Origin: Candidatus Lloydbacteria bacterium RIFCSPHIGHO2_02_FULL_50_18
GTDB lineage: Bacteria > Patescibacteriota > Minisyncoccia > Phycocordibacterales > UBA6899
Assembly (NCBI GenBank): GCA_001821395.1
Contig: MHLM01000016.1
Coordinates: forward strand, 1 to 42,604
DNA: 42,604 nucleotides
Reading direction: 5' to 3'
Both the position numbers and the translations under genes were made by a program. The notes under the pieces were generated by a model, which was given only the letters and a program-made list of their open reading frames with translations, was not told the DNA's origin and ran no database searches. Each line of letters begins with the position of its first letter. Position 1 is the first letter of the stretch. Positions 1 through 33,509 of the stretch are shown piece after piece.

Positions 1-1565
<1,565 letters not shown>

Positions 1566-10169: not shown

Positions 10170-10291
10170 GTTATTGCTCCTTGAAAAGAACGCACCTACC
10201 TTCTTTTATGCTACGCGACCCTCTGCGACTGAATAGATTGACATATTTCCGATCTATTTTTTAATACACAAGCGATGACTACTTTTTTGAT

Positions 10292-10457
10292 AAAAGGTAT
10301 TAAACCCCAGGGCAAGCCCTGGACTCGCAATGAGCTCGCAAAGCCTCGCGCGAGTCCGCGGCAGAGCCGCTGGGTATTAAACCTTTTTTAGCTCTCCTCG
10401 GTTCGGAAATGAAAAAGAAGAATTTTTCATTTCGCTCACTCTACGTCGGCAATAAAG
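10292..10457 (+). repeat. Repeat element A, copy 2, intact. It lies between the two secreted paralogs.
   Basis: Near-identical to 5385-5607 (minus the B insert) and to 28201-28365. Confidence 0.85.
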
Positions 10458-11640: not shown

Positions 11641-12315
11641 TCAATCGACGGCTTTCTCGACCTGTTCTTTCTCATAGTCCAGCCATTCTTCAACAAATTT
11701 GGCGAAGTCTCCTGTGTTTTCAAAATAATCAGGAAACTCGCTCGGTGAAAGTATCGCCGACTCTTCCCTTTTGCCAACGGCATAATCCTCGTAGCTCGAA
11801 TATCGATACCCCTCGAGATACTTCTTCGCCGCAGACAGATTCTTGATTCCTCCCTCCTTCCACTCGGGCTCGATCAGTTTCACGGGGTTCAAGTGAATAT
11901 ACGCATATAGGTATTTCAAATACTCGTCACTGTCGACATGCTCCGCCTTAAATCTACCTTGAAATAGCGGACCAACCCTCTTATTCTTTAAATTGAAATA
12001 CTTCGAGTAGCTCGTAGTGAGTTTTTCCATGAACGTACTAACTCCCCCTTCAGATATCTCCTTAACAAGTAGGTGAAAATGATTATTCATAAGTACATAC
12101 GCACCAATCGCAACAATTTTGTCATCTACCTCTATTTTATCCAAAGGCAGCCTTTGGATAAGTTTATAAACTACTGGCCGAGTGCTATTTGAGATGTGTA
12201 ACATCCGGTGGAAACGTACTCGATCACTCCTATCCATGAAGATATCTCTTTTCTCAACTCCGCGATTGTAAACGTGGTAGTACTCCCCTTCTGCAAAAGT
12301 AATCTTTCTATTCAT
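11641..12315 (-). CDS. HUH Y1 transposase, IS200-like / REP-associated tyrosine transposase (RAYT-1), 224 aa.
   Basis: YHVYNRG...YVLMNNHFHLLV (HUH motif)...GPLFQGRF.AEHV...YLKYLYAYIHLNPVK (catalytic Tyr region). A paralog is at 32268..32930. The cognate palindrome ccaaaggctgcctttgg lies upstream at 12331-12347 and 12397-12413, and inside the CDS at 12141-12157. Confidence 0.85.
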   Translation of the reverse strand: MNRKITFAEGEYYHVYNRGVEKRDIFMDRSDRVRFHRMLHISNSTRPVVYKLIQRLPLDKIEVDDKIVAIGAYVLMNNHFHLLVKEISEGGVSTFMEKLTTSYSKYFNLKNKRVGPLFQGRFKAEHVDSDEYLKYLYAYIHLNPVKLIEPEWKEGGIKNLSAAKKYLEGYRYSSYEDYAVGKREESAILSPSEFPDYFENTGDFAKFVEEWLDYEKEQVEKAVD

Positions 12316-12330
12316 TCAACTAATTTTACT

Positions 12331-12413
12331 CCAAAGGCTGCCTTTGGACAATTGGTCGGGGTGTTAATTCAATCACGTCTGCTCCAATCAACATATCCAA
12401 AGGCTGCCTTTGG
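12331..12413. repeat. Two REP-1 palindromes (ccaaaggctgcctttgg) at 12331-12347 and 12397-12413, upstream of RAYT-1.
   Basis: Perfect 7-bp stem palindrome. The two copies are 66 bp apart. Confidence 0.8.
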
Positions 12414-12486
12414 ATGGGGTGGGGGGGTATTCAGGATATAACAAAATCCCCTCTTTCGAGAGGAGTTTTGTTTTCCAAAAAATTAC

Positions 12487-12530
12487 GGCAAACACAAAAG
12501 CCCCTTTCGGGGCTTTTGTGTTTGCCAAGG
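12487..12530 (-). terminator. Strong terminator for the surface-protein gene. Perfect 18-bp stem ggcaaacacaaaagcccc / ggggcttttgtgtttgcc with a tttc loop.
   Basis: Hairpin followed by a T-run in the minus sense, about 50 nt after the stop at 12579. Confidence 0.7.
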
Positions 12531-12578
12531 TAGGTCCTTGGGAGTTTAGAACTCCAACTGAGTTCAGACTGGGACGAA

Positions 12579-18045: not shown

Positions 18046-18236
18046 ATAGTGTCTTTAAATTGTCCTTATATGATGTCACACAATTTATTAAAAGTCAAAT
18101 GCTGTCTATTAACCTGTCCTTGAATGCGTCTGGAGCAATAATTTATGTCCATCATACTCACCGACGGCAGAATGTCCAATAGTGTCCGATTGAGGGCGGA
18201 ATGGGGCAAAAAAACACCTGTGGATAACCTACGCTC

Positions 18237-18328
18237 GGGATTGCTTATTGAGGGCACGCATAAAAGTCTGCTGACTTTTTGCTCAGACTCCCGCCGCCGC
18301 GGTCCGTAGCCCCTCAATAAGCAATCCC
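18237..18328. promoter_or_regulatory. Long hairpin: perfect 18-bp inverted repeat gggattgcttattgaggg / ccctcaataagcaatccc around a 56-nt loop that contains a smaller hairpin. It lies in the divergent promoter region upstream of ftsK, next to a DnaA box at 18219-18227.
   Basis: Inverted repeat read directly from the sequence. Confidence 0.45.
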
Positions 18329-18505
18329 TCGCTCCGCAGAAAGTATTTGGAGTTTCATGAGAATCATTTAATGCCGTGGCACCAAAACCGGAGGAATTGC
18401 GGCAAATATAAAATGGACAACTTCTCCAAGGTCGGGTCTATCAAAGCCTAGGCCCGACCTTAGTCCATTTTTTTGTGATAAAATCAGAGCAAATTAAATA
18501 CCGCT

Positions 18506-20956: not shown

Positions 20957-21068
20957 ATACCATCGCTCGTTAACCATTTCTGAATAAGTTTCCAAGGAGA
21001 GACCTTTCAAAGCCAAGGACTCACCTTTGAAACTTACAGAAACGGAAAAGATTAATTGGAGATGGTAT
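20957..21068 (+). mobile_element. Element C copy 1, a roughly 112-bp MITE-like unit with about 11-bp terminal inverted repeats (ataccatcgctc...gagatggtat) that carries an internal REP-like hairpin.
   Basis: About 98% identical to the copy at 33398-33509. The TIRs are reverse-complementary. Confidence 0.8.
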
Positions 21069-27389: not shown

Positions 27390-28202
27390 ATGTTAAAAGG
27401 ACACGAATCAAGACTCTCAGACAAGCAGCGATACCTTCAGGTGGCGCTTAATGGTACGCGTGCAGATGCACGGGCGATCCTCTCCGTCTTACCATCTTCC
27501 GAACGCATCATCATTGAAGCGGGTACACCCCTCATCAAACGTTATGGTATCGGCATCATCAGGGAGATCTACGACTGGGCTCCGCGGGGGACATTCGGAG
27601 CAGCGGCAGACCGCCGCGCACTAGACGCAAAAATAGCACAATTTGGTCTGATCGGTGCTGTGACACGATCATTTACAGAAGCACAGCGAACACTCCGGGT
27701 GGCGGGAGTGGAGCAGGCTTCAAATAGGCCGTACATTGTTGCCGATATGAAAACGATCGACCGCGGTGAAACAGAGGTGGCGATGTGCGCCTCGGCTGGT
27801 GCAAGTGCAGTGATCGCGATGGGTTCTGCTCCCATCGAAACGCTGAATACCTTCATCGCGTCCTGCGAGAAATACGGCCTCGATGCAATGATTGATATGA
27901 TGAATGTTGAATTCCCACTTGCCGTACTGCGCTCACTCAAAAAACCTCCGCGAGTCATCGTGCTCCACCGCGGTGTCGACGAAGAGCGTGACAACGGACA
28001 AAAAATGCTTCCGCTCCACGAGATCCGTCGCCTCAAGGGGCAATACGACGTCCTCATTGCCGTCGCGGGAGGCGACACAGCGCGGGAGGTACAGAGTGCG
28101 GCATTCAACGATGCGGACATCGTCGTGATATGGAAATCGGTATATGAACAAAACGGCGAGACGCTCGAGCTCATTGAGGGATTTCTCAAAACGATCAAAT
28201 AA
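27390..28202 (+). CDS. OMP-decarboxylase-fold protein of the 3-hexulose-6-phosphate synthase (HxlA) / KGPDC-like family.
   Basis: LQVALN...IEAGTPLIKRYG...IVADMKTIDRGETEVAMCASAGASAVIAMG...VIVLHRGVDEE...AVAGGDT aligns to HPS blocks (LQVAID, ELGTPLIK, FADMKTMD, AGGV). The usual Asp in LQVAID is Asn here. Confidence 0.6.
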   Translation: MLKGHESRLSDKQRYLQVALNGTRADARAILSVLPSSERIIIEAGTPLIKRYGIGIIREIYDWAPRGTFGAAADRRALDAKIAQFGLIGAVTRSFTEAQRTLRVAGVEQASNRPYIVADMKTIDRGETEVAMCASAGASAVIAMGSAPIETLNTFIASCEKYGLDAMIDMMNVEFPLAVLRSLKKPPRVIVLHRGVDEERDNGQKMLPLHEIRRLKGQYDVLIAVAGGDTAREVQSAAFNDADIVVIWKSVYEQNGETLELIEGFLKTIK

Positions 28203-28365
28203 AAGGTATTAAACCCCAGGGCAAGCCCTGGACTCGCGATGAGCCCGCAAAGCCTCGCACGAGTCCGCGGCAGAGCCGCGGGGTATTAAACCTTTTTTAG
28301 CTCTCCTTGGCTCGGAAATGAAAAAGAAGACTTTTTCATTTCACTCGCTCTACGTCGGCAATAAT
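28201..28365 (+). repeat. Repeat element A, copy 3. It sits between the HPS-like stop codon and a strong 12-bp-stem terminator at 28372-28401.
   Basis: Near-identical to the other two A copies. The terminator gaacagcgtatc-atgctc-gatacgctgttc plus a T-run follows. Confidence 0.85.
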
Positions 28366-31441: not shown

Positions 31442-32260
31442 CTAGAGACAGAAGATGCGTTTTGCATTCTCCAACAATGTTTCTGTCACGATCTCGGAAT
31501 CTATTCCTTTTATTTCTGCGACGGCACGCACTGTCTCAAGAACATAGGCCGGTTCATTACGTTTACCTCGATAGGGCGCTGGGGCAACATAAGGGGCATC
31601 CGTCTCAACGTGCAGTGAGCCAAGTGGAATATACTTGAGCACTTCGTCGTAATCGTGCGAAAAGGTCAGTACGCCGGTGAATGACATTGTAAAACCCATA
31701 TCAAGAAACTGCTTTGCGATGATAGTATCCCCAACGAAGAAATGCACATTACCCTTCACTCTCCCTCCGTAACGCTCCTGCCCGTTCTTCAGGATATGCA
31801 GAATGTCTTCATAAGCGTCCATGCTCCCCTTCTCCGGTCTGCCGTGGATCATGAGCGGCTTATCGACCGCAGCAGCAAGATCCATTTGCCTCGTGAATAG
31901 TTCCTGTTGGCGATCGGCCTCCGCATCCATGTTCTCAATCCTCCCTCTCGCGCGATCATCTTCCAATCGAAAATAGTCGATTCCACATTCTCCAATTCCG
32001 ACCACGCGGGGATGTTTTGCCATTTTGCAATATGCGGCTTCATCGTATGTCTCAAGCGGATCATCAGTAGGGTGAACGCCTATCGTCGCCCAAATGTCCG
32101 AATGTTCTTCTGCGAGGGCTATCGCACGGAGCGACATCGCCTTGTCCGTCCCCACTACGATCGATGCGACGTGTGCAGCACGCATGCGCAAAAGCACCAG
32201 GGGTAGATCCTCTTCGAAACGCTTGTCATTTAAATGCGAGTGAATGTCTATATATTTCAT
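31442..32260 (-). CDS. tatD: TatD-family metal-dependent deoxyribonuclease/hydrolase.
   Basis: MKYIDIHSHL N-terminus, GIGECGIDY and later His/Asp motifs. The start is placed at the MM pair 32258-32263. The longer listed ORF would read through the REP/RAYT stop region. Confidence 0.85.
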   Translation of the reverse strand: MKYIDIHSHLNDKRFEEDLPLVLLRMRAAHVASIVVGTDKAMSLRAIALAEEHSDIWATIGVHPTDDPLETYDEAAYCKMAKHPRVVGIGECGIDYFRLEDDRARGRIENMDAEADRQQELFTRQMDLAAAVDKPLMIHGRPEKGSMDAYEDILHILKNGQERYGGRVKGNVHFFVGDTIIAKQFLDMGFTMSFTGVLTFSHDYDEVLKYIPLGSLHVETDAPYVAPAPYRGKRNEPAYVLETVRAVAEIKGIDSEIVTETLLENAKRIFCL

Positions 32261-32267
32261 CATATCG

Positions 32268-32930
32268 TCACTCCAAGGTGGAACCTTGGAAATTAAGCCA
32301 GTCGCTGATATATTCGTCAAATTGTTCTGCATGCTCAAAGTATTCGGGAAAATCTTTCACCGAAAGAATGGGTGACTCGATCCGTTGTCTACCCTGCCAG
32401 TCTTGCATACTCGAATAAACATACGCGCTCAAATACTTTTTTGCAGCTGCAGGATCCTTGATTCCCTCTTTTCTCCACGTTGGATCGATGAGTTTGACCG
32501 GATTAAGATGAATGTATGCAAAAAGATACTTCAGGTATTCATCTCGCGACACATACTCCGCCTTGAATGTTCCCTGGAAGAGCGGCCCGACACGTTGGTA
32601 TTTTTTATTAAAGTACATTGTGTATCCCGTCGTCAATTTCCTCATAAACTCAGTGATGCCTGTATCATTTGTTGCACGGACAAGCAGATGGAAATGATTA
32701 GGCATCAATACATATGCACCCATGGCACACTGTGCGTTGCCGCGACCCTTGGGATCAAGCACGTCCCCAGCAAGCAGCTTGTAGACGGTCGGACTATCAC
32801 CATTCGCGTAAAACAACATCCGCTGAAAGCGCACATGATCAGGGTCATCCATGAATACCTGCCGCTTCTCCACTCCACGATTGTAGACATGGTAATACTC
32901 GCCCTCAGAAAAAGTGATATGCCGATTCAT
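32268..32930 (-). CDS. HUH Y1 transposase, IS200-like/RAYT (RAYT-2), 220 aa. Paralog of 11641..12315.
   Basis: YHVYNRGVEKR...YVLMPNHFHLLV...GPLFQGTFKAEYV...YLKYLFAYIHLNPVK. Its last codons lie inside one copy of the palindrome ctccaaggtggaaccttgg (32271-32289). An identical copy lies upstream at 32954-32974. Confidence 0.85.
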   Translation of the reverse strand: MNRHITFSEGEYYHVYNRGVEKRQVFMDDPDHVRFQRMLFYANGDSPTVYKLLAGDVLDPKGRGNAQCAMGAYVLMPNHFHLLVRATNDTGITEFMRKLTTGYTMYFNKKYQRVGPLFQGTFKAEYVSRDEYLKYLFAYIHLNPVKLIDPTWRKEGIKDPAAAKKYLSAYVYSSMQDWQGRQRIESPILSVKDFPEYFEHAEQFDEYISDWLNFQGSTLE

Positions 32931-32953
32931 TGTGGCAATTATACCTCCCCCTA

Positions 32954-32974
32954 CTCCAAGGTGGAACCTTGGAG
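32954..32974. repeat. REP-2 palindrome ctccaaggtggaaccttggag, about 25 bp upstream of the RAYT-2 ATG. A second copy at 32271-32289 overlaps the RAYT-2 stop.
   Basis: 8-bp stem with a 5-nt loop, two identical copies in the same orientation flanking the gene. Confidence 0.8.
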
Positions 32975-33127
32975 TGGATTTTCATGAGCACCCCCCCCCG
33001 AATGGTGCCCTGACTCAAGACATAAGTATTTCGGCCAAAATACCGGAAATGATATCTCGGTCATTAGCCTGCCATGCTTTTCAAAACAAAAAACCGCAAA
33101 AATGCGGTTGTACGGCGTAACCCATGC

Positions 33128-33397: not shown

Positions 33398-33509
33398 ATA
33401 CCATCTCTCGTTAACCATTTCCGAATAAGTTTCCAAGGAGAGACCTTTCAAAGCCAAGGACTCACCTTTGAAACTTACAGAAACGGAAAAGATTAATTGG
33501 AGATGGTAT
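33398..33509 (+). mobile_element. Element C copy 2, about 98% identical to 20957-21068.
   Basis: ataccatctctcgttaaccatttccgaataagtttccaaggagagacctttcaaagccaaggactcacctttgaaacttacagaaacggaaaagattaattggagatggtat. Confidence 0.8.

Follow-up and report, generated by a model that had tools for sequence, protein, structure and literature searches.

Two RAYT-like HuH nuclease genes of a Candidatus Lloydbacteria genome, each with a cognate palindrome at fixed stations

The contig MHLM01000016.1 of Candidatus Lloydbacteria bacterium RIFCSPHIGHO2_02_FULL_50_18 (assembly GCA_001821395.1; the 42,604 nucleotides analyzed are hereafter called the window) carries two paralogous genes, R1 and R2, belonging to a family in which each gene possesses a cognate palindrome. 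This palindrome is 19–25 bp long, near-perfect and present at up to three fixed stations per gene. We interpret R1 and R2 as long-resident, vertically inherited (domesticated) Y1 HuH single-stranded DNA nucleases resembling REP-associated tyrosine transposases (RAYTs; REP, repetitive extragenic palindrome), each forming a REPtron-like unit with its palindrome; we assign this interpretation a probability of roughly 0.7.

The two proteins share 58% identity over 220 aa (E = 7e-95), and no further R1/R2 paralogue was found in the window. Both match PF01797 (Y1_Tnp) above its gathering score of 23 bits (30.9 for R1, 35.4 for R2), the alignment spanning only profile positions 38–119, the C-terminal two thirds. 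An AlphaFold (AF2) model built from 34 homologues (predicted local distance difference test score, 85; predicted template modelling score, 0.84) was compared with the PDB using Foldseek. Its top match is 4ER8 (E = 4e-6; target-normalised TM-score 0.66), the E. coli REP-associated tyrosine transposase with a bound REP hairpin, and the next matches are the TnpA proteins of IS608, ISDra2 and IS200 (2A6M, 2VJV and 2XM3 among the matches). Sequence searches of the PDB (phmmer and a 34-sequence profile) returned nothing relevant; the link to 4ER8 comes from the fold search only. The catalytic residues are invariant: N78, H79 and H81 (HuH, N78-H79-x-H81) as well as Y139 and N143 (Y139xxxN143) are present in 170 of 170 relatives, S173-S174 in 169 and P144 in 151. 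The C-terminal tail is predicted to be helical, and no Pfam match to Bac_DnaA_C, HTH_23 or HTH_28 was obtained for it at E ≤ 1.

The full motif set comprises NHFH, LFQG, YIHLNP and SS (S173-S174), the tyrosine motif being YxxxNP (class 2 of PMC6006769), not YxxxQ. Quentin et al. (2018; PMC6006769) characterise TnpAY1 subclass 2.1 by NH[YF]H, by FQ instead of W[EQ], by Y[IV]HLNP and by SS in the proximal part of the tail. The subclass corresponds to Group 1 of the RAYTs (Bertels et al. 2017) and is made up largely of TIRYT genes (Di Nocera et al. 2013). Compared with the motifs tabulated in PMC6006769 (Table 1), the R1/R2 set matches that of subclass 2.1/Group 1 (TIRYT-like), a placement read from sequence motifs. 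An earlier note on this DNA had called two IS200-like/RAYT-type Y1 HUH genes of about 220 aa; the open reading frame (ORF) lengths, the PF01797 scores and the 4ER8 fold match bear this out, and the motifs now suggest the RAYT group. With more than 3000 clusters at E < 1e-40, this is a large family; the few clusters that carry a source name are mostly Parcubacteria. The source strain comes from Rifle groundwater and recurs, at 100% identity, among the assemblies of many samples.

The R1 palindrome, H1 (CCAAAGGCTGCCTTTGG, core TCCAAAGGCWGCCTTTGGA), occurs twice upstream of the gene and once in frame at codons 52–58. The upstream copies are exact on the + strand (12331–12347 and 12397–12413); the internal copy (12141–12157) is exact on the − strand, its central base thus being flipped relative to the other two. 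No 3′ hairpin was found at R1. The R2 palindrome, H2 (CTCCAAGGTGGAACCTTGGAG, core TCCAAGGTGGAACCTTGGA), has one exact copy upstream of the gene (32954–32974) and one across the stop codon (32271–32291; TGA at 32268–32270), the latter with a single mismatch in the last base (...GGAA). In 100 dinucleotide shuffles of the window the chance expectation was 0.00 for H1 and likewise 0.00 for H2. The earlier note had described each gene as flanked by perfect copies of its own palindrome: the own palindrome is confirmed at both loci, perfection fails at the R2 stop codon. A sigma-70 scan called no promoter for R2.

One arm of the 3′ H2 copy supplies a GGAG sequence located 7 nt before the ATG of tatD (32263). 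The homologue P0124 (homologues are cited by P numbers, DNA stretches from the searched collections by L numbers) possesses a 3′ palindrome at +640, in the same position and role, and GGAG(G) lies 6–7 nt before the tatD start in both genomes. Since this arm holds the tatD GGAG(G), and since R2 and P0124 each abut or overlap tatD (window 32260–32291; stretch L050 10641–10680), the sequences suggest that a single-stranded DNA nuclease (R2) and the TatD DNase may be co-transcribed and translationally coupled.

Thirteen family members were examined together with their DNA: R1, R2, R3, R3b, P0007, P0022, P0042, P0090, P0111, P0084, P0097, P0109 and P0124. Each of them has its own locus-specific palindrome (Table 1). 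The upstream station is occupied in 13/13 members (imperfectly in P0111) by one to four copies at about −33 to −110, the proximal copy usually lying at −33 to −55. An in-ORF station at +154 to +157 is present in eight members, imperfectly in P0022, and a 3′ station at or just past the stop codon (+640 to +735) also in eight. Copies match within a locus and are different between orthologues, and the changes keep pairing. Between R2 and P0124 (74% identical), the loop changes from GGA to GAG in both copies.

Table 1. Features of the window and cognate palindromes of the family members
Feature	Position	Strand	Details
R1, Y1 HuH (RAYT-like) nuclease gene	11641..12315	-	ORF, 224 aa
H1 internal station	12137..12161		11-bp stem, TTATCCAAAGG-CAG-CCTTTGGATAA; in frame, encodes LIQRLPLDK, codons ~51–59
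H1 proximal upstream copy	12330..12348		-33 from ATG, in the 17-nt spacer of the sigma-70-like promoter match
Promoter-like TTGTCC-17-TAAAAT	12351..12323	-	Consensus match only; not significant alone
H1 distal upstream copy	12395..12415		-100, 9-bp stem
GGGGTGGGGGGG tract adjoining distal H1 copy	12416..12427		C-run in gene sense
H2-like hairpin CCAAGG-TAGGT-CCTTGG	12525..12541		Between the terminators of the 1122-aa gene and R1; loop differs from H2
R2, paralogue of R1 directly upstream of tatD	32268..32930	-	ORF, 220 aa
H2 3′ station	32271..32291		Covers the last R2 codons (FQGSTLE) and stop
H2 upstream station	32953..32975		-45, 10-bp stem ACTCCAAGGT-GGA-ACCTTGGAGT
C9 tract	32991..32999		16 nt from the upstream H2 copy
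112-nt repeat, two copies 98% identical	20957–21068, 33398–33509		Terminal inverted repeats ATACCATCNCTC...GAGATGGTAT
166-nt repeat, copies 94.6% identical	10290–10455, 28199–28364		Hairpin GAAATGAAAAAGAAGAMTTTTTCATTTC and direct repeat GGTATTAAACC
~106-nt long-hairpin element	18230–18335		Inverted GGATTGCTTATTGAGGG arms, z -5.4; between the 322-aa gene and ftsK
23S rRNA gene, 5′ part, extends past window start	1–1559	-	Rfam, 1151 bits
Palindrome at R1			TCCAAAGGCWGCCTTTGGA
Palindrome at P0007			TACAAAGTCCGTCTTTGTA
Palindrome at P0090, P0111			GTACAAGGGCNGCCCTTGTAC
Palindrome at P0042			TGTACGAGGGTACCCCTCGTACA
Palindrome at P0022			CCTAGGGGTACCCTAGG
Palindrome at P0084			TTCCAAGGGTWACCCTTGGAA
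Palindrome at P0097			CCAAGGGCSGCCCTTGG; inverted doublet
Palindrome at P0109			CAGAGGGWWWCCCTCTG; doublets on both sides
Palindrome at R2, R3			TCCAAGGT-GGA/TCC-ACCTTGGA
Palindrome at P0124			TCCAAGGT-GAG/CTC-ACCTTGGA

Covariation was measured at the in-ORF station in an ungapped alignment of 11 homologues. In this alignment 85% of cells are paired, and there are 14 double-sided changes vs. 6.3 ± 2.0 in shuffles, the observed 14 being reached in 0 of 500. Compensatory changes affect five of the eight pairs; the covariation score is 0.50, and controls with slid partners give at most 0.25. The encoded peptide follows the pattern [ILV]-Q-[GRS]-x-[PST]-L with unchanged length, and in the AF2 model it falls into a predicted loop between the helix 29–42 and the strand 68–75, before the HuH motif. 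As a protein-level proxy, a hairpin-compatible peptide is found at this position in 106 of 170 family clusters, the commonest being QGSTL (H2 type). Judged from these alignments, the copy inside the gene is no accident but a station that is conserved, in frame and co-varying.

A bolder reading makes the in-frame palindrome at codons ~52–58 a functional part of the system, not a tolerated insertion, and the whole a self-referential HuH–palindrome circuit extending across the Candidate Phyla Radiation (CPR). We put it forward tentatively and would sooner expect it to fail than to hold. The in-frame copy might then be a protected master or template, or else a site of self-recognition and feedback. 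Enzyme-driven replacement would keep it matched to the promoter and stop-codon copies, so that enzyme specificity and substrate would be coupled in evolution.

The genomic context of both genes is conserved. R1 has orthologues with 72% (P0007), 69% (P0022), 63% (P0042), 60% (P0090) and 60% (P0111) identity, and the six genomes share one neighbourhood. Its upstream order is recA, ftsK, a ~320-aa gene and a ~1100-aa gene, followed by the RAYT gene; this order was read where contigs extend, the P0007 contigs starting just upstream of the gene. Downstream, rplJ-rplL (L10-L12) is present in all five orthologues. R2 and P0124, in two genomes, each stand between metG and tatD, with rpsF-ssb-rpsR further on. 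Because R1 and R2 are single-copy and syntenic across divergent genomes (down to 60% and 74% identity, respectively), they look domesticated and vertically inherited rather than like active insertion sequence (IS) elements. Plasmid and phage collections yielded only matches of at most 37% identity and no close relative, and viral contigs (IMG/VR) contained no H1, no H2 and no family member. This synteny and vertical inheritance, like the conserved in-gene station, had escaped the earlier note. R3, a third homologue, was considered as an R2 orthologue and rejected: it is not syntenic, though it shares H2.

Copies away from the cognate gene were found in relatives. In the Lloydbacteria metagenome-assembled genome (MAG) GFS_12220, four contigs together carry five exact H1 copies, none of which lies within ~3 kb of a homologue. 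Two of the five stand in tandem and in frame in argS (SKGSLWTPKAAFG; L016 4422–4460), a gene which also holds an in-frame 31-nt palindrome, GTCAAGGT...ACCTTGAC (L016 5685–5715). The source-strain argS (67% identical) is shorter at the variable linker, where its sequence differs and contains no palindromes; the argS palindromes are therefore lineage-specific, which the sequence comparison marks as one clear insertion. Another two H1 copies are nested centrally in a longer palindromic element, gcgccagagcagaaaag ... cttttctgctctggcgc, present on two contigs in opposite orientation with 82% identity (L019 4614–4722, L021 1143–1250). ORFs of ~220 aa beside dispersed H1 copies (L019, L021, L016) were tried as family members and rejected as not homologous. 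H1 also occurs in the MAG CAZERF01, home of the R1 orthologue P0090, whose 3′ station is an H1 variant.

H2 was detected on 13 metagenome stretches, including the R3 locus, where it occupies all three stations, and gene-less contigs. One copy lies in frame within a metallophosphatase ORF (L023 324–344). The queA gene of a 2.5-kb contig from the source strain's sample contains exact H1 and exact H2, both in frame (L034 1593–1611, 2001–2031). Neither palindrome has a stop codon in any of the six frames. The metagenome collection is incomplete, a known R2 contig of sample 3300002529 not having been returned. In the scan of the genome collection, which does not include the source MAG, six of the ten matches fell in other taxa, of which five fit chance and one (L017) is a relative.

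A small XRE-type helix-turn-helix (HTH) gene (116 aa) lies between inverted H2 copies in one strain (L032 99–570). In related strains a single H2 (L029 5598–5617, L035 1152–1171) adjoins different DNA for ~1 kb, giving a strain-variable hotspot bounded by the palindrome. REPIN-like inverted doublets of the TTACAAGATGCCCTTGTAA and CCTACAAAGGGCATCTTTG types are located near the P0097 gene (L040 3167–3206, 3290–3327).

We hypothesize that the enzyme, like E. coli TnpA-REP and IS608 TnpA, recognises its palindrome as a hairpin formed in single-stranded DNA and that it cuts and rejoins next to the hairpin, so that palindromes are occasionally copied or replaced. Such activity would explain both dispersal and concerted evolution: low-copy spread to intergenic sites and to variable loops in housekeeping genes, there in frame, on the one hand, and copies at a locus all staying matched to the enzyme on the other. 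Gene-proximal copies probably also act in cis on expression, as one overlaps a promoter match and the 3′ copy of R2 holds the putative tatD Shine-Dalgarno sequence. Cutting and rejoining at hairpins we infer by analogy with 4ER8 and IS608; hairpin binding, copying and the regulatory roles are likewise proposals.

Several observations weigh against this interpretation. No H1 or H2 copy outside the two loci is present in 52 kb of the source genome, i.e., the 42.6-kb window and a 9.6-kb contig extension that added no copies, so the number of dispersed copies in the source genome is low or nil. A systematic hairpin scan of the window revealed no further member except the H2-like hairpin at 12525. 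The NCBIfam RAYT equivalog NF047646 (REP_Tyr_transpos) is the top NCBIfam match for both proteins, though at 43.8 and 46.0 bits, under its cut-off of 80. No GT[AG]G or CGTC foot or other conserved flanking tetranucleotide was seen by eye beside 54 copies. The orientation of the 3-nt centre varies among stations and orthologues. Palindrome type does not follow the protein phylogeny: H2 is common to R2 and the non-syntenic R3 (58% identical), and R1 differs in palindrome from its 72%-identical orthologue. Finally, subclass 2.1 has been reported without REP-like structures nearby (PMC6006769).

The same points qualify what the earlier note had proposed. The RAYT/REP organisation stands insofar as gene and cognate palindrome go together in 13 of 13 members; the sub-threshold NF047646 score, the missing GT[AG]G foot and the subclass 2.1/Group 1 motifs set these genes apart from the classic REP-associated subclasses. 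The notion of an active repeat-generating system is unproven for the source genome, given the 52 kb free of further copies; exact copies away from the gene, and the argS insertion, were seen in relatives. The link between the R2 palindrome and a dispersed hairpin family is at best hinted at. In the window, only the 12525 hairpin and the CCAAGG-containing 112-nt repeats would fit; a TCCAAGG-N5-CCTTGGA family was seen only in a relative, with six hairpins of three loop types in 20 kb around P0022 (L042).

An unlikely but serious alternative is that the palindromes are purely cis-regulatory (operator, attenuator or translational coupling). The domesticated nuclease would work elsewhere, e.g., in replication or repair with TatD, it would not mobilise the palindromes, and distant copies would represent a regulon or have another origin. 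The position of the proximal H1 copy in the spacer of the R1 promoter-like match and the GGAG before the tatD ATG in R2 and P0124 would suit such a function, as would the absence of dispersed copies from 52 kb of the source genome. As the centre orientation is not conserved and the stems read the same on both strands, a symmetric double-stranded protein-binding site fits as well as a hairpin. Published subclass 2.1 proteins moreover have HTH-like tails and no REPs, whereas Pfam at E ≤ 1 detects no HTH domain in the C-terminal tail of R1 and R2, and their closest fold is that of an enzyme crystallised on a DNA hairpin. Exact 19–20-mers that lie in frame within the argS, queA and metallophosphatase genes, as tandem copies or nested inside other palindromes, are unexpected for operators, and the argS copies are lineage-specific.

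It is far less probable that R1 and R2 are autonomous IS200-type insertion sequences, with the hairpins as left and right ends of a ~0.75-kb mobile element. Genes bracketed by like hairpins, in the same orientation at R2, do recall the ends of IS200/IS605 elements; Pfam calls the family 'Transposase IS200 like', and relatives are labelled 'transposase' in several sources. Against this reading stand a single copy of each gene (R1 and R2 being only 58% identical to each other), genomic positions kept down to 60% (R1) and 74% (R2) identity, and the class 2 motif YxxxNP in place of the IS200 motif YxxxQ. In addition, no tnpB was found among the called genes neighbouring R1 and R2, R1 lacks a 3′ hairpin, and plasmid, phage and viral collections contain no close relative. 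Ordinary terminators of the intrinsic type, which the earlier note had kept in view, and inverted repeats formed by chance are effectively refuted as explanations of the palindromes: a consensus scan does mark the distal H1 and upstream H2 copies as terminator-like, but shuffles predict zero matches, the T tails are weak, the same sequence lies inside ORFs and in a promoter spacer, the neighbouring gene's genuine strong terminators (12486–12527 and 12447–12465) are separate structures, and the stations recur in 13 homologues with compensatory changes.

Those intrinsic-terminator-like hairpins follow the 1122-aa surface-protein gene and have stems of 18 bp and 7 bp, respectively; the H1 copies lie beyond them. 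The 112-nt repeat folds into one long imperfect hairpin (DNA minimum free energy −24.4 kcal/mol, z −6.7) with CCAAGG..CCTT motifs, and one of its copies is located ~470 nt upstream of R2. It could be a MITE- or REPIN-like element or a small RNA gene. Both copies of the 166-nt repeat appear to be located after gene ends. The ~106-nt element has a 93%-identical copy upstream of queA on the same-sample contig mentioned above (L034 455–560) and no match among Rfam families. An Rfam scan of the window gave nothing beyond the 23S rRNA, and the window contains no tRNA genes.

RAYT/REP systems are a textbook case of a domesticated transposase of unknown function, and nearly all work on them has concerned Proteobacteria, Cyanobacteria and Bacteroidetes. 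R1 and R2 represent a large clade in genome-reduced Parcubacteria, in which chromosomal position is kept over deep divergence and the palindrome is small, simple and present in few copies. The relationship between enzyme and site is unusually tractable here, as there are three fixed stations, compensatory evolution is clear and orthologues offer natural variants of specificity. The retention of two such genes in streamlined genomes of ~1 Mb argues for a role beneficial to the host. Among the matches listed by a literature search, no paper connected RAYTs with CPR/Patescibacteria.

REPtrons have been described as RAYT/TnpA-REP genes with flanking REPs, of the E. coli yafM type (Nunvar 2010; Bertels & Rainey 2011; Ton-Hoang 2012; Messing 2012). 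They resemble R1 and R2 in the Y1 HuH fold (4ER8 being the top match), in the YxxxNP motif and in being single-copy, vertically inherited genes; a genome may hold two or more paralogues that have diverged, each possessing a palindrome of its own. In both systems, palindromes are found on the flanks of the gene and at other places as well, some of them in frame inside genes. Unlike REPs, the palindromes of the R1/R2 family are short (19–25 bp) and nearly perfect; their centre measures 3 nt, and a GT[AG]G foot is lacking. They number five in one MAG, with none dispersed in 52 kb of the source genome, whereas classic REPs occur in tens to hundreds of copies. The R1/R2 proteins are also ~60 aa longer, with a conserved helical tail, score below the cut-off of the RAYT hidden Markov model and belong to CPR/Parcubacteria hosts.

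IS200/IS605 TnpA proteins (IS608, ISDra2) share the HuH/Tyr core and gene-flanking hairpins as recognition elements. They differ in the YxxxQ motif, in multi-copy, near-identical insertion sequences, often with a tnpB partner, and in a length of ~150 aa.

Subclass 2.1/Group 1/TIRYT proteins agree with R1 and R2 in the motif set, a length of ~220–240 aa, low copy number and divergent paralogues. The low copy number of the palindromes is in line with RAYT Group 1, where the flanking 16-mer averages ~12 copies. Some terminal inverted repeats of TIRYT genes are self-complementary and overlap the 5′ or 3′ end of the gene (Di Nocera et al. 2013). C or G runs of at least 6 lie within 30 nt of 9 of the 54 cognate palindromes, about eight-fold more than the ~1 expected by our own estimate from run density. 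These runs, of 6–9 C or G, are 2–19 nt away, mostly at the outermost upstream copy (window, L016, L036, L042, L044 and L050). They recall only the GGGG of the TIRYT repeat consensus GGGGWSAS, to which no match was seen by eye. In contrast to published subclass 2.1 proteins, every member of the R1/R2 family examined has a palindrome, the tail gave no Bac_DnaA_C or HTH_23/28 match, and there is an in-ORF station, undescribed for this subclass. The published statement that subclass 2.1/Group 1 genes lack REP-like partners is thereby qualified.

Only in subclass 2.4 (RAYT Group 4; Cyanobacteria/Bacteroidetes) have REPs been reported in frame within a RAYT gene (PMC6006769). As in the R1/R2 family, cognate palindromes lie within the nuclease gene, in a surface-exposed variable region, and leave the frame intact. 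Subclass 2.4 has the motifs WQ and YIxNNP, which R1 and R2 do not share. Unlike it, the R1/R2 family has one palindrome at a fixed position before HuH, without length change and maintained clade-wide through compensatory changes. The kind of system is thus known; new are the host clade, the lack of a GTAG foot, the combination of subclass 2.1-type proteins with REP-like palindromes, and the conserved, co-varying in-frame station.

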